Assembly (NCBI GenBank): GCA_900316875.1
Contig: ONEP01000091.1
Location: 1 to 61,267 of the forward strand
Length of the DNA: 61,267 nucleotides
From: Candidatus Ruminimicrobium bovinum
GTDB lineage: Bacteria > Elusimicrobiota > Endomicrobiia > Endomicrobiales > Endomicrobiaceae
Reading direction: 5' to 3'
Shown: positions 1,955 through 29,765 of the stretch, in pieces
How the letters are laid out: each line of letters opens with the position of its first letter
Numbering within the stretch: the stretch's first letter is position 1
The notes under the pieces: generated by a model
Database searches by the model: none
What the model was told of the DNA's origin: nothing
Seen by the model: only the letters and a program-made list of their open reading frames with translations
Position numbers and translations under genes: made by a program

Positions 1955-3151
1955 ATGAACCGAACATATAAAAGAAACCAGTATAAATTAATTTTATCAA
2001 GACTGAAAGAGCCGAGAAAATTTATTCAAATTTTGTTCGGTGCAAGACAAGTCGGTAAAACAACTTTAATTACTCAAGTGTTGGAAGACATAAACAAAGA
2101 GTATATTTTTGTATCTGCAGATAATGAAATAAATGCAAGTTCCGTTTGGCTTACACAGCAATGGGAAACTGCAAGAATAAAATTGAAATCTTCTTCAAAA
2201 AAAGAATTGATTCTTGTAATTGATGAAATTCAAAAAATAAAAAATTGGAGTGAAGTTGTAAAAAGTCAGTGGGATTATGATACAAGAAACAAAATAAATA
2301 TTAAAGTTGTTTTGATTGGTTCTTCATCAATTCTTGTTCAAAAAGGTTTAAGTGAATCTCTTGCCGGAAGATATGAGATTATAAGAATACCACACTGGTC
2401 TTATAAAGAAATAAAATCTGCATTCGGTTTGTCTTTAGATGAATATGTTTTTTTCGGAGGATATCCCGGAAGTATAGATTTAATTAAAGATGAAAAAAGA
2501 TGGAAACAATATGTTAAAGATTCTTTAATAGAGCCCGCAATAACTAAAGATGTGTTATTAATGTCAAACATAACAAAACCGGCATTGTTAAGACAATTGT
2601 TTCAGTTAGGCAGTATTTATTCCGGACAAATTTTGTCTTATACAAAAATATTGGGACAATTACAGGATGCCGGAAACACAACAACATTAGCAAATTATCT
2701 TAATTTGTTGAATGTTGCAGGATTGTTATGTGGGTTACAAAAATACTCAAAAAATCAAATTCAAACAAAAAGCTCTATACCAAAATTTCAGGTTTATAAC
2801 AGTGCTTTGGTATCTGCATTTGAAACGGAAACTTTTAAAGAAGTAAAATCCGACTTGAACAAATGGGGAAGATATTGTGAAATTGCAGTCGGGACACACA
2901 TGTTAAATGATTGTATATGTAACGGATACAAACTTAATTATTTCAGAGAAGGAAACTACGAAGTTGATTTTGTTGTAACAAAAGATAATAAATCCGTTGG
3001 TATTGAAGTTAAAAGCGGTAGAAATACAACAAATTTATCCGGTATGGAACTTTTTAATAAGAAGTTTAAACCTTATAAAACTCTTCTTGTCGGACAAAAA
3101 GGAATAACTTTTGAAGAGTTTTTATCATTAACTGTTGCCGATTTGTTTTAA
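1955..3151 (+). CDS. AAA_14/DUF4143-type ATP-binding protein, a second and divergent paralogue
   Basis: Walker A GARQVGKTTL and Walker B ILVIDEIQ. C-terminal YEVDFVVTK...GIEVKSG nuclease-fold-like motif. GGAG RBS. Confidence 0.8.
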   Translation: MNRTYKRNQYKLILSRLKEPRKFIQILFGARQVGKTTLITQVLEDINKEYIFVSADNEINASSVWLTQQWETARIKLKSSSKKELILVIDEIQKIKNWSEVVKSQWDYDTRNKINIKVVLIGSSSILVQKGLSESLAGRYEIIRIPHWSYKEIKSAFGLSLDEYVFFGGYPGSIDLIKDEKRWKQYVKDSLIEPAITKDVLLMSNITKPALLRQLFQLGSIYSGQILSYTKILGQLQDAGNTTTLANYLNLLNVAGLLCGLQKYSKNQIQTKSSIPKFQVYNSALVSAFETETFKEVKSDLNKWGRYCEIAVGTHMLNDCICNGYKLNYFREGNYEVDFVVTKDNKSVGIEVKSGRNTTNLSGMELFNKKFKPYKTLLVGQKGITFEEFLSLTVADLF

Positions 3152-4570: not shown

Positions 4571-5902
4571 ATGGAAAACAAGTTGGCACAAAATTTTAAA
4601 TTTTTCGGTTTAATAAAATTTGCATTACCGACAATGATAATGGTATTTTTTGTATCGTTATATGTTATGGTTGACGGTGTATTTGTTTCCAGGTTTGTTA
4701 ACACAAGTGCATTTGCCGCAATAAATATAGTTTATCCGTTGTTCAGTTTATTGTTTGCAATATCAACCATGCTTGCTTCCGGAGGAAGTGCTTTAGTTGC
4801 AAAAAAGATGGGTGAACAAAAAAACAAACGGGCAAAACAATATTTTTCTTTAATAGTTATTTCTTCGGCAATAATCGGTTTAATTTTTGCATTAATATGT
4901 TTAATATTTATAAAACCCATACTTTATATTTTAGGTTCAAATGATTTAATTTATGAATATTGTTACGATTATATTGTTCCTATTTTAATTTTTTCACCTT
5001 TATGTATATTGCAAATGATATTTCACTCGTTTTTTATTGCGGCAGGTAAACCTAAAATTGGGCTTATTGCCACTTTTACAGGAGGAACAACAAATATAAT
5101 TTTTGACTATATTTTTATTGCCGTAATGGGTATGGGCATTTCCGGAGCAGCTTACGGAACAATTGCAGGTTTTATTGCACAAAACACAATAGGTTTTTTT
5201 TATTTTACATTTAAAAGAAAAGGCGCATTATATTTTGTTAAACCGAGTTTAAATTTGCTTGCAATTGTTAAAAGTTGTTATAACGGTATTGCGGAATTTA
5301 TAGGAAATTTATCCGTATCGGTAACTACTTTTTTGTTTAACATAGAAATGATGAAATATATCGGTGTTGACGGTGTTGCGGCAATTACAATAGTCCTTTA
5401 TGCCGAATTTATTTTAACATCAATTTTTTACGGATATTCTTCAGGAGTTGCACCGATATTCAGTTACAATTACGGAAGCAAAAACACATACCGACTAAAA
5501 AACACTTTTAAAATAAGTATGATTTTTATAATTTTATCTTCCGTTTTAATTTATTTATTTTCAATACCGGCAGCCCCTTACATAATAGATATTTTTGCAA
5601 AAGAAAATATGCATGTGTTTTATATTGCATTAAAAGGATTTTTTATTTTTGCCGTTTCGTTTTTGTTTACCGGAATAAATATTTTTTCGGCAGCAATGTT
5701 TACCGCATTTTCCAACGGAAAAATTGCTTCAATAATTATGTTCCTTAGAACTCTTGTATTTTTAAGTTTGGCAATTTTGTTATTACCTTTAATTTTGAAT
5801 ATTAACGGAATTTGGTTGGCCGTTCCGACAACAGAATTTCTTTCAATATTGGTATCAATATTTTATTTTTTAAGATACAGAAAAATATATAACTTCTGCT
5901 AA
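4571..5902 (+). CDS. MATE family efflux transporter
   Basis: About 12 hydrophobic segments. N-terminus FALPTMIMVFFVSLYVMVDGVFVSRF is typical of MATE/NorM proteins. Confidence 0.8.
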   Translation: MENKLAQNFKFFGLIKFALPTMIMVFFVSLYVMVDGVFVSRFVNTSAFAAINIVYPLFSLLFAISTMLASGGSALVAKKMGEQKNKRAKQYFSLIVISSAIIGLIFALICLIFIKPILYILGSNDLIYEYCYDYIVPILIFSPLCILQMIFHSFFIAAGKPKIGLIATFTGGTTNIIFDYIFIAVMGMGISGAAYGTIAGFIAQNTIGFFYFTFKRKGALYFVKPSLNLLAIVKSCYNGIAEFIGNLSVSVTTFLFNIEMMKYIGVDGVAAITIVLYAEFILTSIFYGYSSGVAPIFSYNYGSKNTYRLKNTFKISMIFIILSSVLIYLFSIPAAPYIIDIFAKENMHVFYIALKGFFIFAVSFLFTGINIFSAAMFTAFSNGKIASIIMFLRTLVFLSLAILLLPLILNINGIWLAVPTTEFLSILVSIFYFLRYRKIYNFC

Positions 5903-5950: not shown

Positions 5951-7723
5951 ATGAGAAAAATAAAATTTTTAATATTATCCATGTTTTTTTTCTGTTGCCT
6001 GTTTACATCAACAGGATGTTTTGCTGCTGAAAAAGAACAAATTACAATTACTATTTTAAAAGGCGACAACCTTAATAATTATAAACAACAAATATCAAAA
6101 GCTTTAAAAGAAAAACTGAATAAAGAAGTAGTAATAAAAGTTTTGAATTATGATATTTTCATGATTGATATGGATAGAGGCAACAGCGATTTTTATAAAG
6201 GGTCTCCTTTAACTTATGTTTATTCATTATCAAATACGGTTATATTAAAATCACTTTATAAAATTAATGACCAGTGGAAAACCTGTTATTTACCTGTTAT
6301 ACTTGCAAGAAAAGATAGAAATATAAACACAATACAAGATTTGCAAGGTAAAAAATTTTATTTTACAAATCAAAATTCCGCATCAGGTTATTTGTACCCG
6401 AAATTATTTTTAATTGAAAATAACATAACTATAGAAAAGGAATTTGCAAACGATAATTCACCGAGTGCAAAAGATGTTTATAATTATGTTATAAGCGGAA
6501 AATGGGATGCCTGTTGTTCTTTCTACGGACTATTTGAAAATGATCCTTTATTTAAGGATGACAGTTTAATAAGAATTATTGAATCTCCCGTATATAATGA
6601 AAATAAATGGATAAATGGCGAATTTCAAAATAAATATATGCAGACCATTAATTTTGTAAAAGAAAATTTAATGGAATTGTTTGATGATGATGATGATGAT
6701 ATTTACGGATTGTTTGAAAATACACCGTTATTTCAAGACAATTCGTTATTCCAAAATAATTCTTTAATAAAAGTTTTTGAAATAAACTCACCTATACCTA
6801 ACGACCCTTTATGGGTAAACAGGGAGTTTCAAAAAAAATATCCGGAAATCGTTAATGTTGTAAAAGAAACATTTTTGGAATTGTTTAAAGATAACGAAAC
6901 AATAAGATTTGCTCCTGCAAAAGACAGTGATTATAATTCAATAAGAAGAAAAGTAAGAATATTAGGTATCATAGAAAACAAAGATTTTATATCCGTAGAT
7001 AAATTTCTTGGCCTTTTTACAAAAAATCCGAGAATTTTGGATTTTGTTTTAAAATACAGTTTACATATTATACTTGTAAATTTAATATTCGTAGCAATTA
7101 TAATTATTATAGTTTATATAATTTTTAAAAAGACAATAGTAAAAAAATATTATTCGGAGCATAAATTATTAAACGATAAATATAACGATTTATTAAAACA
7201 TTTGAAAGAAGAAAATGATTTTAATTTAAAAATAACAAAACTTGAAAATGAAATAAAAATTGCTTTTAAGGATTTTTCTAAATTTGTGCAAGATTCAATT
7301 ATGGTTAAATATGTTGCTACCGGTGAATTTTTATATAACAAGTATAAAAACACGAATGCGATGGAACCGTCGGCAATAGCAAACTGTTATGTTAAGGCAT
7401 TTGAAAGAATTGTTATGGTTAGCGCTTACGGTTTTGAAACTTTTGAAAAGCAAGATGATATAAAAGTTCCGGACGAGCAGCAAAATATTAAAAATAAAAT
7501 AGATCCGAAAAAAATATTGGATAACGGTATCAGAGATATAAGAGAAAAAGCAAATTTGAACAACAGAGAATATAAAAGTTTACAAAAATGTAAAAGTATA
7601 AGAAACAAAGTTGCACATTTAAAACCTGTTTCAACGGAAGAAGTTGTATCCATAAGAAAAACTCTTTTGGGCGAAATTCCTTATACGAACGGAATTTTAG
7701 CAAAATTAGCACCATATCTTTAA
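5951..7723 (+). CDS. Lipoprotein-type PhnD-family substrate-binding domain, one TM helix, coiled coil and a HEPN-like C-terminal domain (fusion protein)
   Basis: Signal/lipobox FTSTGC. PhnD-type motifs FTNQNSASGYLYP and SPIPNDPLWVNREF. TM helix LHIILVNLIFVAIIIIIVYIIF. C-terminal KSIRNKVAHL (R-x4-H) at nt 7601-7618. Confidence 0.75.
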   Translation: MRKIKFLILSMFFFCCLFTSTGCFAAEKEQITITILKGDNLNNYKQQISKALKEKLNKEVVIKVLNYDIFMIDMDRGNSDFYKGSPLTYVYSLSNTVILKSLYKINDQWKTCYLPVILARKDRNINTIQDLQGKKFYFTNQNSASGYLYPKLFLIENNITIEKEFANDNSPSAKDVYNYVISGKWDACCSFYGLFENDPLFKDDSLIRIIESPVYNENKWINGEFQNKYMQTINFVKENLMELFDDDDDDIYGLFENTPLFQDNSLFQNNSLIKVFEINSPIPNDPLWVNREFQKKYPEIVNVVKETFLELFKDNETIRFAPAKDSDYNSIRRKVRILGIIENKDFISVDKFLGLFTKNPRILDFVLKYSLHIILVNLIFVAIIIIIVYIIFKKTIVKKYYSEHKLLNDKYNDLLKHLKEENDFNLKITKLENEIKIAFKDFSKFVQDSIMVKYVATGEFLYNKYKNTNAMEPSAIANCYVKAFERIVMVSAYGFETFEKQDDIKVPDEQQNIKNKIDPKKILDNGIRDIREKANLNNREYKSLQKCKSIRNKVAHLKPVSTEEVVSIRKTLLGEIPYTNGILAKLAPYL

Positions 7724-7731
7724 CGACAATC

Positions 7732-8616
7732 ATGGCAAACTATATAGAAATAAATTCAAAAACGGCTTGTAATAAAGTTGACAGCAATTTCCTTCCATTC
7801 AATTGGGATTTAAATATTTACAGAGGTTGCGAACATAAATGTCAATATTGTTTTGCTTTGTATTCTCACAAATATATCAATTCAACCAATTTTTTTGATA
7901 ATATATATGTAAAGAAAAACATAGTAGGATGTTTTGAAAAACAAATATCTTCAAAAAAATGGAAAAGAACCATTGTTAATATCGGTGGAGTTACGGACAG
8001 TTATCAACCTGCGGAAAAACAATATAAATTAATGCCTGAAATTTTAAAACTATGTATAAAATATAAAGTTCCCGTAACTTTATCAACAAAATCAAAACTT
8101 ATATTAAGAGATTTTGATTTGTTTGCAGAATTATCAAAATTTGTTCCTGTCAATATAGCATGTACTATTACAACTGTAAATGAAAAAGTAAGAAAACTTA
8201 TTGAACCTAATGCCGCAACATCATTGGAGAGATTCAATAATTTAAAAGAATTTTCAAAAACAAATGTTAACACAGGTATATTTATTATGCCGATAATTCC
8301 GGAGCTTACCGATTCATATAATAATTTAAGTTTGTTATATAAAATTGCAAAACAAAATAACGTAAATTATGCAATTACTGCTATTTTAAATTTAAGAGGA
8401 GAAACAAAAATACAGTTTTTAAATTTTATTAAAAATAAATTACCGCATTTATATGGAAAAATAAATTCTTATTATAAAAGTGCTTATGTAAATTCCGCAT
8501 ATAAAAAAAGATTAAATACGATGTTAAACAGAATAACCGAAAAATATCCGTTAAAAGAAAAAGAAATAAATTATCCGGATTATAAAAATATTGATGAACA
8601 GTTTTATCTGTTTTAA
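7732..8616 (+). CDS. Radical SAM protein, SPL (spore photoproduct lyase-like / DNA-repair photolyase-like) family
   Basis: YRGCEHKCQYCFA (CxxxCxxC) near the N-terminus. The size and layout are typical of the SPL-like radical SAM family. Confidence 0.75.
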   Translation: MANYIEINSKTACNKVDSNFLPFNWDLNIYRGCEHKCQYCFALYSHKYINSTNFFDNIYVKKNIVGCFEKQISSKKWKRTIVNIGGVTDSYQPAEKQYKLMPEILKLCIKYKVPVTLSTKSKLILRDFDLFAELSKFVPVNIACTITTVNEKVRKLIEPNAATSLERFNNLKEFSKTNVNTGIFIMPIIPELTDSYNNLSLLYKIAKQNNVNYAITAILNLRGETKIQFLNFIKNKLPHLYGKINSYYKSAYVNSAYKKRLNTMLNRITEKYPLKEKEINYPDYKNIDEQFYLF

Positions 8617-26306: not shown

Positions 26307-27005
26307 TTATTTACACGGAAGCGTTACTGCAACGGAAGTTCCTTCATTTTTTCGGCTTTCAATATTTATTGTTCCGTCACAAGCTTCAACTATTTGTAAA
26401 GCAACCGAAAGCCCCATCCCCATGGCTTTAGCTGTTTTTGTAGAGAACATAGGGTCAAAACAATTTTCAAGCGTTTGTTCATCCATTCCTATACCGTTAT
26501 CTTTAACCGTAACTGTTACTTTATTATCCGAAATTGCCATATTTACATCAACTGCACCGCTATTTTCCATTGCATCTTTTGCATTTTTTATTATATTAAA
26601 AAAGACAAGTACCATTTTATCTTTATCGGCATAAATATTTGCGGATGTTAAATTTGTTTTAAATGTTATTTTATCAGTTTTTGAATTTTCAATTGCCTGC
26701 TCAATTATCTGCTTTAAATCACACTCGGTTTTTGTTATTTGTTTTACTCTTGTTTTATCCAACAAATCAGTAATAAGCTGGTTTAAATGCTTAACTTCGG
26801 ACGACAATAATTCCAACATTTTATTAGGGACTTCGCCTTCAATTTTAAAAACTTTTGAAAAATAATATGAAATATTCGACAAACCGCCGAGACTGTTTTT
26901 TAAATCATGTGAAGCAATTGAAGCAAACCTTGCAATTACTTTATTTTTTTCGGTATTCAATTCTTTTTTCGTTAAATTATAAACTTTATTTTCCATTATT
27001 TGCAC
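26307..27005 (-). CDS. Small soluble histidine kinase (HisKA plus HATPase_c, no sensor or TM region)
   Basis: H-box ASIASHDLKNSL, N-box NIIKNAKDAM, G1 DNGIGM and G2 GMGLSVAL. Confidence 0.85.
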   Translation of the reverse strand: MQIMENKVYNLTKKELNTEKNKVIARFASIASHDLKNSLGGLSNISYYFSKVFKIEGEVPNKMLELLSSEVKHLNQLITDLLDKTRVKQITKTECDLKQIIEQAIENSKTDKITFKTNLTSANIYADKDKMVLVFFNIIKNAKDAMENSGAVDVNMAISDNKVTVTVKDNGIGMDEQTLENCFDPMFSTKTAKAMGMGLSVALQIVEACDGTINIESRKNEGTSVAVTLPCK

Positions 27006-28071
27006 CGCCTATAATATCAGTAACCTGTTCCAAAAGTTGTTGCGGTAAATACGGTTTTGCTATATAATAAAAAGTATTTTCTTCCAAAGAAGATAAAATT
27101 CCCGTATTGTTAACCAAATAAAGAATTTTTTCGTTAGGCATTAATTGATGAATTTGTTTATGAAATTCTAACAATAAATCTTCATTATTAATATTTACTA
27201 TTACTATATCAAAAAAATCATTTTTCAACTCGTCTAAAAATTTTTGTTGAGTTTCATATTCAAATACGTTGTATTTATCTTCAGGAAATAACTGTTTAAA
27301 ATTAACGTCATTTATGGCAATAGCAGCTATATTTAATTTTCTTGCCCTGCCCGTAATTAAATAAAAAATATTATTAATATTAACAGGCGTTTCTAAAAAG
27401 TTTACAGGTTGATCCGTTAAATTTTTAATGTTATCAATAAAAGATTCGGCACTTTTCGGACCTGTTAAAATAATTTTAGGTAATTTATCGTTTAAAGATT
27501 TTATATTATTTATTATTGTTTGTGCCTGTTGGTCAACACTATCGTTAATACCAATAATTAAATTATCCGGATAGTGTCTTTTCATAAAACTTATATCGGC
27601 CGTTGTTTTTTCTATAAAAACTGTATTTAAGCCGTCTTGTTTTAAGTTGGATAAAAAATTTCTGGAAATATTTTTCTTTTCATCAATAACCACAACAAAA
27701 GGTTGATTTGATAATTCGGTTATTATATCTAACATCTTTTCTATTTCAAAGGGCTTCGTTAAACAAAAATTTGCACCTAATTCCAAAGCTTCAACTATCA
27801 ATTCATTTAAAGCATAAGCTGTCATTATAATACAAATTAAGTCCGGCTGAATTTGCTTTACGGCTCTTATAACGTCGGTCCCCGTAATATCGGGCATTCT
27901 CATATCGGAAAAAAGCATATCAAATTGTTCTTTTTTCACCATTTCAATAGCTTCGGTACCGCAAGATGCCGTTTTTGTTTCGTATCCGTATAAATCCAAA
28001 ATACTTGAAGTAGATTCCCTTAATGCTTCTTCATCATCAACTATTAAAATTTTCAAATGTTTTTCATCCAT
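26986..28071 (-). CDS. Response regulator: canonical REC domain followed by about 240 aa with no recognisable output domain (possibly two degenerate REC-like repeats)
   Basis: KILIVDDEEALRE...MLFSDMRMPDITG...IIMTAY...LTKPF. The C-terminal segments VVVIDEKK...IIGIND...KIILTG...FLETP and IAAIAIND...DIVIVNIN...YIAKPY look REC-like. Confidence 0.8.
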   Translation of the reverse strand: MDEKHLKILIVDDEEALRESTSSILDLYGYETKTASCGTEAIEMVKKEQFDMLFSDMRMPDITGTDVIRAVKQIQPDLICIIMTAYALNELIVEALELGANFCLTKPFEIEKMLDIITELSNQPFVVVIDEKKNISRNFLSNLKQDGLNTVFIEKTTADISFMKRHYPDNLIIGINDSVDQQAQTIINNIKSLNDKLPKIILTGPKSAESFIDNIKNLTDQPVNFLETPVNINNIFYLITGRARKLNIAAIAINDVNFKQLFPEDKYNVFEYETQQKFLDELKNDFFDIVIVNINNEDLLLEFHKQIHQLMPNEKILYLVNNTGILSSLEENTFYYIAKPYLPQQLLEQVTDIIGGANNGK

Positions 28072-28085
28072 AAAAAACCCTTTTT

Positions 28086-29669
28086 TTATTTAATCGGTAA
28101 CAAAACTATAAATTCGGTTCCAACACCCACTTTGCTTGTAACGGTTATTACTCCGCCATGGGCTTCTATTATTTCTTTTACTATAGGTAAACCTAAACCG
28201 ATACCTTTTAATTTTGTTGTAAACAAAGGTTCAAATAACTTTGCAATTGTTTCATCAGTCATTCCCGAAGCCGTATCAGATACTTTTATCATAAATTTAT
28301 TATCCGTCGATACTGATGACGATAAGGTAATTGTTCCGCCTGTTTGCGGCATTGCATCCCTTGCATTTGCAATAAGGTTTATTAAAACCTGTACTATTCT
28401 GTCCGGATCGACTGAAACAATAAATCTGCCCGATTGATCTATAACTTTAATATTTTCGGCAACAGGAACCGATTTTATGGCTTTATCTATTAACACACCT
28501 ACATCTATTTCCAATTTATTTATCTGTTTAGTTTTTGAGTAATCAAGAAGCTCGGTAATAATTTTGTTTGCTCGAACAACTTCATCGGATAACATTTGAA
28601 TCATCTTCTTTTCTTTTTCATTTGTATAATTTCCCATTTTTAATAAAAAGTAAGAAATATTTTTAATACTTGCCAGCGGATTTCTTAATTCATGTGCAAC
28701 AGATGAAGATAATCTACCGATAGTTGCAAATTTTTCGGCACTTATCAAATCTTTTTGTATGCTTTGAACTTTATCCAAAGTTTTTTCAAGTTCGCGACTT
28801 CTTTCTTCAAATGCAATCTTAAGTGTCAATAAATTTTTCTTTTCTCTGTTTAATTCTTTTATTTGAGCTTCCATATCCGACGCCATTGAATTAAATGAAA
28901 TAGCCAAATCTCTGAATTCATCTTTCGATATTAACGGAACTCTGTAACTTAATATCCCTTTTGCTATTTGATTTGTTCCTATTAACAATTCGTTGATAGG
29001 CCGTATAATTATTTTGATTAAAAATATTGATATTATAATTGCGGCTAAAATTACAACTACCGTCAAAATAATGATACTTCTTTTAACTTTGGATATCTGA
29101 TATTTTATTCTTTCCAAAGTAAGCCCTACACGAACAAGCCCGATTACTTTAGTAGTTTTTGCTTTCGGCATCATCATTGGATTTGTCGGTATAAAAGTAT
29201 ATGACCCCGTATTATATGATACCATGGGAACAAATATTTCAACTACATCACCTATTTCTTTGATATTTAATATTTTTGTTTGTAAACCGTTTTTATCGAG
29301 AGAAGCAATATATTTTTGATCAAAAGAAGATGCCGTAACAAAATTATTAATATCTGTTGTGGAAACCAACGATTCAGCTAAAGTATTACCAAGTTCGTCA
29401 TAAATAACGGCATAAAGGACATCGTCTTTTTTTATTGTATCTTTTGTTAAACTTAAAAGAAAATCATGATTTTTGGCAACAACACCGTATTCACAAGAAC
29501 CGGCTAAACCGTGCGCTATTATAATACCTTTATTTTCTATTGAACTTTGTAACAACAATGATTGTCCGTTGATAAAAAACCAACTTAACACTACGGAGGT
29601 AATTATGATAACTATTGAAATTACTAACGTGAATTTAAAACTGAGACTGTATCTCATTTCACTTTTCAT
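28086..29669 (-). CDS. Membrane sensor histidine kinase (periplasmic loop, HAMP, HisKA, HATPase_c)
   Basis: Two TM helices bracket a loop of about 170 aa. HAMP is IIRPINELLIGTNQIAKG...FNSMASDM. H-box SSVAHELRNPLASI, N-box LIANARDAM, G2 GIGLGLPIV. Confidence 0.9.
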   Translation of the reverse strand: MKSEMRYSLSFKFTLVISIVIIITSVVLSWFFINGQSLLLQSSIENKGIIIAHGLAGSCEYGVVAKNHDFLLSLTKDTIKKDDVLYAVIYDELGNTLAESLVSTTDINNFVTASSFDQKYIASLDKNGLQTKILNIKEIGDVVEIFVPMVSYNTGSYTFIPTNPMMMPKAKTTKVIGLVRVGLTLERIKYQISKVKRSIIILTVVVILAAIIISIFLIKIIIRPINELLIGTNQIAKGILSYRVPLISKDEFRDLAISFNSMASDMEAQIKELNREKKNLLTLKIAFEERSRELEKTLDKVQSIQKDLISAEKFATIGRLSSSVAHELRNPLASIKNISYFLLKMGNYTNEKEKKMIQMLSDEVVRANKIITELLDYSKTKQINKLEIDVGVLIDKAIKSVPVAENIKVIDQSGRFIVSVDPDRIVQVLINLIANARDAMPQTGGTITLSSSVSTDNKFMIKVSDTASGMTDETIAKLFEPLFTTKLKGIGLGLPIVKEIIEAHGGVITVTSKVGVGTEFIVLLPIK

Positions 29670-29692: not shown

Positions 29693-29765
29693 AGCCGACG
29701 AAAGGGTTTGAACCTTCGACCTACGGTTTACAAAACCGTTGCTCTACCAGCTGAGCTACGTCGGC
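29693..29765 (-). tRNA. tRNA-Thr (anticodon UGU)
   Basis: Hand-folded cloverleaf: acceptor GCCGACG/CGTCGGC, D arm GCTC-AGCTGGTA-GAGC, anticodon arm ACGGT-TTTGTAA-ACCGT, variable loop AGGTC, T arm GAAGG-TTCAAAC-CCTTT, discriminator T. No CCA is encoded. Confidence 0.93.

Follow-up and report, generated by a model that had tools for sequence, protein, structure and literature searches.

The known outputs of bacterial transmembrane signaling are phosphorylation, second-messenger synthesis, methyl-accepting chemotaxis signaling, and DNA binding. In 2013, it was predicted that membrane-anchored HEPN domains sense stimuli at the cell surface and alter RNA stability in response (Anantharaman et al., PMC3710099). 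Three groups were predicted: DUF4145-type domains behind a 'WP' transmembrane (TM) segment, Abi2/Swt1-type domains preceded by an outer domain made up of helices only, and proteins of the form HEPN-2TM-Zn ribbon (PMC3710099). Our literature searches found neither an experimental test of these predicted membrane HEPN sensors nor a description of a version with a binding-protein ectodomain. Binding proteins of Pfam family PF12974 are known as sensors, as AioX and ArrX, with the kinases AioS and ArrS, serve to sense oxyanions and are not parts of a transport system (PMC8050422), and a review of binding proteins in signaling made no mention of RNases or nucleases. Here we analyze a gene at positions 5951..7723 (+) of contig ONEP01000091.1 from Candidatus Ruminimicrobium bovinum (assembly GCA_900316875.1), and by "the window" we mean the whole 61,267-nucleotide stretch of that contig. 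A first-pass annotation, made from the DNA alone, read the product as a PhnD-type periplasmic binding domain coupled through one TM helix to a HEPN-like domain. We consider it somewhat favored, taking the whole chain of steps together, that the gene encodes a one-component transmembrane receptor with a ligand-gated HEPN-type endoribonuclease as its output.

The longest frame at 5951-7723 encodes 590 residues, in keeping with the first-pass annotation. The peptides that annotation had quoted were located in the translation (FTNQNSASGYLYP at residues 138-150, SPIPNDPLWVNREF at residues 281-294, and KSIRNKVAHLKPVSTEE as well), and the codons of R551 and H556 lie at 7601-7603 and 7616-7618 as it had placed them. 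The whole gene (5951..7723), as delimited by the frame and its homologues, comprises a signal peptide, a PtxB-PhnD-like domain, a TM helix, a stalk, and a HEPN-like domain, and all parts of the gene described below are given on the + strand.

Hydropathy analysis indicated exactly two hydrophobic segments, residues 3-26 and residues ~371-392. The first segment and an alignment of homologues define a signal peptide at residues 1-25 (5951..6025) without a lipobox. The lipobox reading of FTSTGC made earlier was ruled out, as the residue at position −3 is Ser rather than Leu, Val, or Ile and Cys23 is missing from all 28 aligned homologues. In those homologues, the same region ends x-F-A followed by Q, K, or E, and to judge from these sequences the N terminus is probably of type I, with signal peptidase I cutting behind x-F-A. 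The second segment is the one strongly hydrophobic helix that had been proposed, a single TM helix at residues ~371-392 (7061..7126) that has a Kyte-Doolittle maximum of 3.42, is hydrophobic in all homologues, and is followed on its C-terminal side by the basic flank KKTIVKK with a net charge of +4. Because the protein has a signal sequence, a single TM helix, and the C-terminal KKTIVKK flank, the first 345 residues are expected to lie in the periplasm and the final 198 in the cytoplasm. Moreover, residues 371-438 formed a single unbroken helix in a full-length AlphaFold2 (AF2) model. The portion beyond the membrane, residues 393-438 (7127..7264), is a cytoplasmic helical stalk of ~45 residues in which hydrophobic residues recur at a spacing of 3 to 4 (L407, Y411, L414, L418, F424, I428, L431, and I435), and the stalk is a probable dimeric coiled coil. 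No HisKA, HATPase, GGDEF, cyclase, or methyl-accepting chemotaxis protein domain was detected in the 590 residues with Pfam or NCBIfam.

Thirty homologues were retrieved from an index of 5.8 billion proteins at 58-85% BLASTP identity. The fusion is kept in all 30, and all but one span the four-part architecture; the exception, P0030, is partial and retains the TM helix, the stalk, and the C-terminal domain. The gene was found in nine GTDB species representatives, all of them metagenome-assembled genomes from rumen or gut and named Ca. Ruminimicrobiellum, Endomicrobiaceae, Elusimicrobium sp., or Elusimicrobia. Mean pairwise identity was highest in the C-terminal domain (88.6%), compared with 67-75% in the binding domain and 57% in the TM helix. 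A further protein, P0031 (274 residues, on a 1382-nucleotide contig), starts like the receptor with the TM helix, the stalk, and half of the HEPN-like domain (its first half) and continues as a formyltransferase C-terminal domain (PF02911); a chimeric assembly or a gene that has been disrupted is the most likely origin.

The identity of the outer domain is firm. The Pfam model Phosphonate-bd (PF12974) matched residues 46-224 with an E value of 1.1e-20 (74.5 bits against a cutoff of 27), and a family profile compared with the PDB aligned over the whole two-lobe fold to the phosphite-binding protein PtxB (5o2j; E 4e-12, profile positions 29-269 against chain residues 6-254). These two matches bear out the PhnD-type binding domain of the first-pass annotation and define a periplasmic binding domain of the phosphonate/phosphite/arsenic-oxyanion type at residues ~27-345 (6029..6985). 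The family profile aligned more weakly to PhnD and to the arsenic-oxyanion signaling proteins ArrX and AioX, and similarity to the sensor kinase TtrS (E 0.0023) was confined to the ectodomain. Because all NCBIfam equivalog scores were far under their cutoffs, including that of the PhnD equivalog TIGR03431 (51.8 bits against 261), the outer domain reads at the sequence level as a member of the fold family rather than a PhnD orthologue. A loop of S143-A144-S145-G146 (6377..6388) is nearly invariant, and the N-S-A-S-G-Y stretch of the homologues that contains it matches the A-S-T-S-S loop of PtxB. It is the putative anion-binding loop, by analogy with PhnD and PtxB structures.

The binding domain of the window protein also contains a 66-residue insertion, residues 203-268 (6557..6754), which is limited to the cluster of the window protein and is a gap in every other homologue. 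The insertion is a diverged tandem copy of the segment that follows it and ends in a poly-Asp linker, DDDDDD. Repeats in the DNA underlie the duplication (6524-6558 with 6704-6738 at 77%, and 6584-6693 with 6788-6897 at 71%), and the first copy reads SPVYNENKW in place of the conserved IPNDPLW motif. The binding domain was modeled poorly in the full-length AF2 model (mean predicted local distance difference test [pLDDT] score of 62), and pLDDT was low over residues 186-269. An assembly artifact was rejected as the source of the duplication, as the identical 590-residue protein is encoded on seven contigs from more than one assembly. The three loci shown for the identical protein are from the ENA assemblies ERZ28614319 and ERZ931543 and from Logan run ERR2027891, and the latter two apparently derive from one sequencing run. 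A second homologue, P0002 (623 residues), carries its own insertion of ~95 residues near the N terminus (columns 39-135 of alignment A1) that seems to have arisen by duplication and divergence of the first strand-helix-strand unit in the binding domain (EEEIAIVFLKGG...KIKVLNYDT). It is curious that so small a family should contain two internal duplications of independent origin.

The cytoplasmic part ends in a HEPN-like domain at residues 439-590 (7265..7720), delimited by AF2 modeling, sub-threshold matches to HEPN models, and Foldseek comparisons. The domain and its motif are present as first annotated; the length is ~152 residues rather than about 130. An exhaustive HMMER search with the domain profile against 1.84 billion representative proteins returned six matches at an E value of ≤0.001: the representative of the clade itself, a chimeric-looking fragment, and four remote relatives (E 1.6e-5 to 9e-4). 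Three of the four (P0032, P0034, and P0035) are full-length response regulators composed of a receiver (REC) domain and a HEPN-like domain, and the fourth is a fragment. Alignment of the window clade with the REC-linked group by hhalign gave a probability of 99.1% and an E value of 5e-19 over 135 columns.

Conservation across these two groups extended to the residues expected of a HEPN active site. The motif R551-N552-K-V-A-H556 (7601..7618) is an R-x4-H with a polar residue after the R, and R-x4-6-H occurs only once in the entire protein. R551, N552, and H556 are invariant in 30 of 30 close homologues and in 4 of 4 remote relatives, the latter at ~30% identity, which answers the question raised in the first-pass annotation of whether R551 and H556 are conserved. 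Thus, the polar residue that directly follows the R in HEPN domains is N552 in all 34 sequences. E485 (7403..7405) is an invariant acidic residue in the second core helix and is counted as the acidic residue that HEPN domains carry upstream of the motif; the form E-x3-[KR] is present in three of the four REC-linked relatives. In total, 11 of 161 columns are invariant across the divide between Elusimicrobia and REC-linked sequences, and R551, N552, H556, and E485 are among them.

Comparison with Pfam pointed to HEPN families, each time below threshold. The window domain matched HEPN_Swt1 (E 0.0033) and DUF4145 (E 0.062), and the remote relatives matched DUF4145 (E 0.0017, 0.0052, and 0.096), DUF3644 (E 0.0051), and HEPN_Apea (E 0.41). 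P0033 also matched the Csm6 model toward its C terminus (positions 324-384 of 433; E 0.04), in the portion that corresponds to the HEPN domain of Csm6. The R..H motif lay inside most of the matched stretches, and the HEPN_Apea stretch stopped at the motif. DUF4145 belongs to the Pfam clan that contains HEPN domains (CL0291), and DUF3644, ApeA, and Swt1 have been described as HEPN families (Anantharaman et al. 2013, PMC3710099). Because the scores were under the gathering cutoffs, the domain was placed in neither HEPN_Swt1 nor DUF4145, and it would at best be a new family within the HEPN superfamily. PADLOC and PHROGs gave nothing informative for the domain or its relatives, and a tblastn search of plasmids with P0033 gave chance matches only. 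The sole PDB profile match, OSTM1 (E 0.4), was judged to be due to chance and was set aside.

To examine the fold, the domain was modeled by itself with AF2 from an alignment that included the remote relatives. The model was all helical and confident (pLDDT 88.2; predicted template modeling score 0.84), with helices at 20-36, 44-64, 109-126, 133-144, and 153-160, where 429 is added to obtain protein numbering. Helix 44-64 contains E56 (E485), helix 109-126 ends in R122-N123-x3-H127, and the intervening insert at 66-104 is poorly conserved, has a pLDDT of <50 at 73-85, and is shorter in the remote relatives. In the published HEPN layout, the motif stands at the end of core helix 3 or the start of the loop to helix 4, a conserved acidic residue is found in helix 2, and an insert is typical between helices 2 and 3 (PMC3710099). 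The model agrees with that layout in all three respects. Moreover, 17 of the top 50 chains in a Foldseek search of the PDB were HEPN proteins (root mean square deviation [rmsd] of 5.6-12 Å), including PaREP1 (2q00 and 2jpu), YutE (1ylm), AF0298 (2hsb), 1wwp, 1wty, HepT (7bxo, 6m6u, and 6m6w), MtlR (6kcr), and Las1 (7y16). The structures 2q00, 1ylm, 2hsb, and 1wwp have been assigned to HEPN, as have the MtlR and Las1 families (PMC3710099). The de novo design 8ka6 aside, the remaining top 50 matches had an rmsd of at least 9 Å and TM-scores below ~0.3, and a Foldseek search of BFVD viral predicted structures gave unspecific matches only. The first-pass annotation had named a non-HEPN fold as an outcome that would count against it; what was obtained is a confident helical bundle whose only consistent neighbors are HEPN proteins, all at E > 1. 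We consider it likely that the cytoplasmic domain has a HEPN fold, and the evidence for its HEPN identity is convergent but sub-threshold.

The REC-linked relatives indicated that the same domain is used behind a second kind of input. The receiver domains contain, by eye, an acidic pair, a candidate phosphoacceptor Asp, a Thr, and a Lys. The gene for P0034 directly follows a gene of 573 residues with an 8-nucleotide overlap, and P0035 has the same partner. The partner has N-terminal hydrophobic segments, a DRHELKN motif resembling a kinase H-box, and a weak match to HATPase_c. The surrounding element encodes a relaxase, two excisionase-like HTH_17 proteins, a primase, and an ERF recombinase, and a PglZ gene adjoins it; from these genes, it is taken to be a mobile element beside a BREX-type gene. 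Two-gene modules of a divergent membrane histidine kinase (573-577 residues) and a REC-HEPN-like protein were seen at L005 6287-8918, in L006, L007, and L021, and at L008 175-2774. The final turns of the stalk in the window protein, L-x-x-E-I-x-x-A-F, align with the linker between REC and HEPN-like domain in the remote relatives, such that a lead-in helix of L-x-x-E-I/V-x-x-A/I-F/L is common to both. Because the lead-in helix is shared by two inputs, the HEPN-like domain appears to behave as an output module driven via its N-terminal helix. Two-component systems predicted to act through an RNase were not described anywhere that our literature searches reached, and full-text searches returned nothing relevant on REC-HEPN or TM-HEPN proteins or on the REC-linked relatives themselves.

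The genomic context of the receptor gene is stable and resembles neither a transporter operon nor a toxin locus. A gene for a MatE-family transporter lies upstream (4571..5902, +; 48-nucleotide gap) and a radical-SAM gene lies downstream (7732..8616, +; 8-nucleotide gap in the window), and the order MatE, receptor, radical SAM recurred in every locus with enough flank. The radical-SAM gene was closest to the NCBIfam models of the Rv2578c and PA0069 families, at ~200 bits and under their cutoffs. In Ca. Ruminimicrobiellum loci, the neighborhood of MatE, radical SAM, diaminopimelate dehydrogenase, IMPDH, and RecN genes is maintained, and genes for a DUF805-like membrane protein or a small lipoprotein are interposed among them in some species. 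A DUF805-like gene, which we so label from our reading of its FWLFTLN...RRLRDANLSPWW motifs, was seen between the receptor and radical-SAM genes at L009 6567-7427 and L012 6714-7616, and a small lipoprotein gene was seen between the MatE and receptor genes at L012 4288-4734. Because genes are interposed in some species, the synteny appears to reflect common descent within one genus rather than an obligate operon, and a functional link to the MatE and radical-SAM neighbors was rejected on the same grounds. In the genome of the window, the receptor and radical-SAM genes are likely cotranscribed, because the gap between them is 8 nucleotides and contains no terminator-like site. No ABC permease or ATPase gene is adjacent to the receptor gene in the window or in eight homologous loci with both neighbors visible, as first annotated; the flanks of those eight loci contained no ABC, TRAP, or TTT transporter gene, and no homologue was found in a phn or ABC operon. 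The ABC ATPase signature LSGGQ did not occur anywhere in the 61 kb. No HEPN/MNT or Abi-type context was found either, as the neighbors were MatE and radical-SAM genes in all loci, PADLOC returned no defense match, and the flanks examined contained no MNT antitoxin.

The topology, the conservation pattern, the occurrence of the domain as the output of two-component proteins in other genomes, and the lack of transporter, antitoxin, or kinase partners are established by these results, and the mechanism we propose from them is conditional. The receptor would dimerize through its TM helix and stalk. The periplasmic Venus-flytrap domain would close upon a small oxyanion, such as a phosphite, a phosphonate, or an arsenic oxyanion, and the movement would pass via the TM helix and stalk to re-orient the two HEPN domains. 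A composite R/N/H site across the dimer interface, of the kind with which HEPN RNases cleave RNA independently of metal, would thereby be made or broken, such that a chemical outside the cell would switch the cutting of RNA on the cytoplasmic side of the membrane. A wider proposal, to which we give tentative credence a little short of even, is that the protein is a one-component receptor RNase, that the same unrecognized HEPN family also provides the output of a two-component system, and that regulated RNA cleavage is a modular signaling output.

Several observations speak against a receptor RNase. HEPN_Swt1 (PF18731) scored 18.1 bits against a cutoff of 27.5, and DUF4145 (PF13643) scored 13.8 bits for the window domain and at most 18.8 bits (P0033) against 23.1. 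Foldseek matches to HEPN chains had E values of 1.3-7 and TM-scores of just 0.36-0.54, and profile searches of PDB sequences with queries A2, A4, and P0033 yielded no HEPN entry. The window protein has E-x3-M at E485 and not the E-x3-[KR] form. The close homologues are so alike that conservation among them tells little, and the deeper test of conservation depends on four remote sequences. The family is also very small, one genus-level clade and a handful of genes on mobile elements, and the design may not be general; a word-indexed search, a GTDB scan, and metagenome and viral scans all failed to enlarge it beyond the Ruminimicrobiellum clade and four REC-linked clusters. The 66-residue insertion in the binding domain of the window copy might impair sensing. 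Finally, an unregulated HEPN RNase would be toxic and no inhibitor gene was seen, and a receptor RNase would therefore need tight autoinhibition.

The first of these points raise the question of whether the domain is HEPN at all. It could instead be a new helical signaling output domain in which R-N-x3-H arose by convergence or chance: every match to a HEPN model was sub-threshold, no Foldseek TM-score exceeded 0.54, BFVD and PDB sequence searches came up empty, small helical bundles give plentiful weak and unspecific structural matches, and an R-x4-6-H would occur by chance in a 150-residue domain with a probability of ~0.15 by rough estimate. Sequences that are ~30% identical nonetheless matched five HEPN-clan models and no other coherent family, most matched stretches covered the motif, and the model follows the published layout in motif position, helix 2 acidic residue, and variable insert, and we regard a non-HEPN domain as improbable. 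Slightly more probable, though still unlikely, is a domain that is HEPN derived and noncatalytic, one that binds RNA or protein or is regulatory and signals by sequestering or releasing a membrane partner. HEPN domains can be noncatalytic binders (PMC3710099), the proposed noncatalytic module MtlR (6kcr) is among the Foldseek neighbors, the gene is syntenic, chromosomal, and single copy without an antitoxin, and conservation as high as 88.6% over the surface would suit a conserved macromolecular partner. Inactive HEPN domains, however, have typically lost R-x4-6-H (PMC3710099), whereas here the R, the following N, the H, and the upstream E stay invariant across a divide of ~30% identity.

Two other accounts concern the role of the protein rather than the chemistry of the domain. 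HEPN domains are mostly toxins of conflict systems (PMC3710099), the sole remote relatives are on a mobile element adjoining a BREX PglZ gene, and the window has a pair of AAA_14/DUF4143 ATPase genes 3-6 kb upstream of the receptor gene, all of which would suit a defense or abortive-infection toxin, an RNase fired by a phage-linked envelope cue to arrest the cell. We think a defense role quite improbable, as the gene keeps a housekeeping neighborhood in every Ca. Ruminimicrobiellum locus with enough flank, PADLOC gave no match, the effector domain evolves slowly and without diversification, and a PtxB-like pocket for small anions would be an odd phage sensor. The complete binding domain and its conserved S-x-S-G loop would befit a membrane-tethered binding protein that serves a transporter encoded elsewhere, with the C-terminal part as an anchor and structural tail. 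That account is disfavored and very improbable: transporter genes were lacking from the flanks of eight loci and an ABC ATPase signature from 61 kb, a plain anchor would need no cytoplasmic part of 200 residues, let alone one conserved more strongly than the rest of the protein, and the cytoplasmic part recurs behind receiver domains. We conclude that a receptor with a HEPN-type RNase output is the preferred reading. The sensor-effector proposal of the first-pass annotation survives in that form, as a non-HEPN fold, loss of R551 or H556, and a place in transporter operons were each not found, but its HEPN matches remain sub-threshold, its RNase activity and ligand gating are putative, its lipobox was wrong, and the general class to which the protein belongs had been predicted in 2013, although with other ectodomains.

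The remainder of the window, which is ~29% G+C, resembles ordinary chromosome. It encodes Tol-Pal proteins, a two-component pair, a XerC/D-type recombinase, NadA, an MprF-like protein, a Bat/MoxR-type operon, RecN, IMPDH, and diaminopimelate dehydrogenase. The AAA_14 and DUF4143 ATPase genes upstream of the receptor gene are tandem paralogues at 215-1516 and 1955-3151 (+); they are missing at the matching position in the related loci L001 and L003 and may have been inserted in this strain only. The response regulator encoded at 26986-28071 (−), next to a histidine kinase gene (28086-29669, −), is 361 residues long and has a canonical receiver and an output region of ~240 residues without a Pfam match at an E value of ≤1e-5. 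Homology of that output region to the HEPN-like domain was rejected (hhalign probability of 0.1%). A single tRNA gene (29693-29765, −) was the only Rfam match in the window at gathering score.

Should the proposal be correct, a receptor with immediate RNA cleavage would add a very fast posttranscriptional class of output, and regulated RNA cleavage would stand on a par with DNA binding or cyclic di-GMP turnover. Because the domain also sits behind a receiver domain, a portable, input-agnostic RNase module is suggested, and a module gated by ligand or phosphorylation could interest synthetic biologists. The receptor may also mark a response of uncultured rumen Elusimicrobiota to reduced phosphorus or a related oxyanion.

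Among described systems, the membrane HEPN groups of Anantharaman et al. are the closest. In them too, a single TM segment leads into a cytoplasmic HEPN domain whose R-x4-6-H is intact, in one group with an extracytoplasmic globular domain ahead of the segment, and the logic proposed for them is the same, with a surface stimulus changing HEPN conformation and HEPN conformation changing RNA stability. The window protein differs in that it has a binding-protein ectodomain and a long stalk, both of which those groups lack, and in that its domain falls under the cutoffs of DUF4145 and HEPN_Swt1, the families for which groups were named. What appears to be new here, as far as sequence comparison goes, is the HEPN-like family and the combination of input and output inside a class that was predicted and has been left unexplored. 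If the proposal is correct, the window protein would offer a case in which the idea of 2013, that RNA is degraded at the membrane in response to a stimulus, is accessible to experiment.

AioX, ArrX, and TtrS share the binding-protein family of the window ectodomain, and their output is a histidine kinase, whereas that of the window protein is a HEPN-like domain. The REC-linked relatives, which are unannotated, share the homologous output domain, the lead-in helix, R-N-x3-H, and the E with the window protein; their input is a receiver domain paired with a kinase on a mobile element instead of a fused periplasmic receptor, and fewer residues are inserted between their core helices 2 and 3. Csm6 and Csx1 (CARF-HEPN) likewise fuse a small-molecule sensor to a dimeric HEPN RNase that is switched on allosterically by ligand. 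Those proteins are soluble, cytoplasmic, CRISPR linked, and sense cyclic oligoadenylate, whereas the sensor of the window protein is periplasmic and its signal must cross the membrane. Ire1 and RNase L also couple a sensor to a HEPN-class RNase output, activated by ligand-driven dimerization or re-orientation, and the likeness is a functional analogy only. Ire1, like the proposed receptor, crosses the membrane once and cleaves RNA there. Both Ire1 and RNase L have a kinase or pseudokinase between sensor and RNase, which the window protein does not. In the KEN domain of both, the HEPN fold is circularly permuted (PMC3710099), whereas the helix order of the window domain is canonical in the model. 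If the proposed activity is borne out, the window protein would be to prokaryotes what Ire1 is to eukaryotes, minus the kinase.

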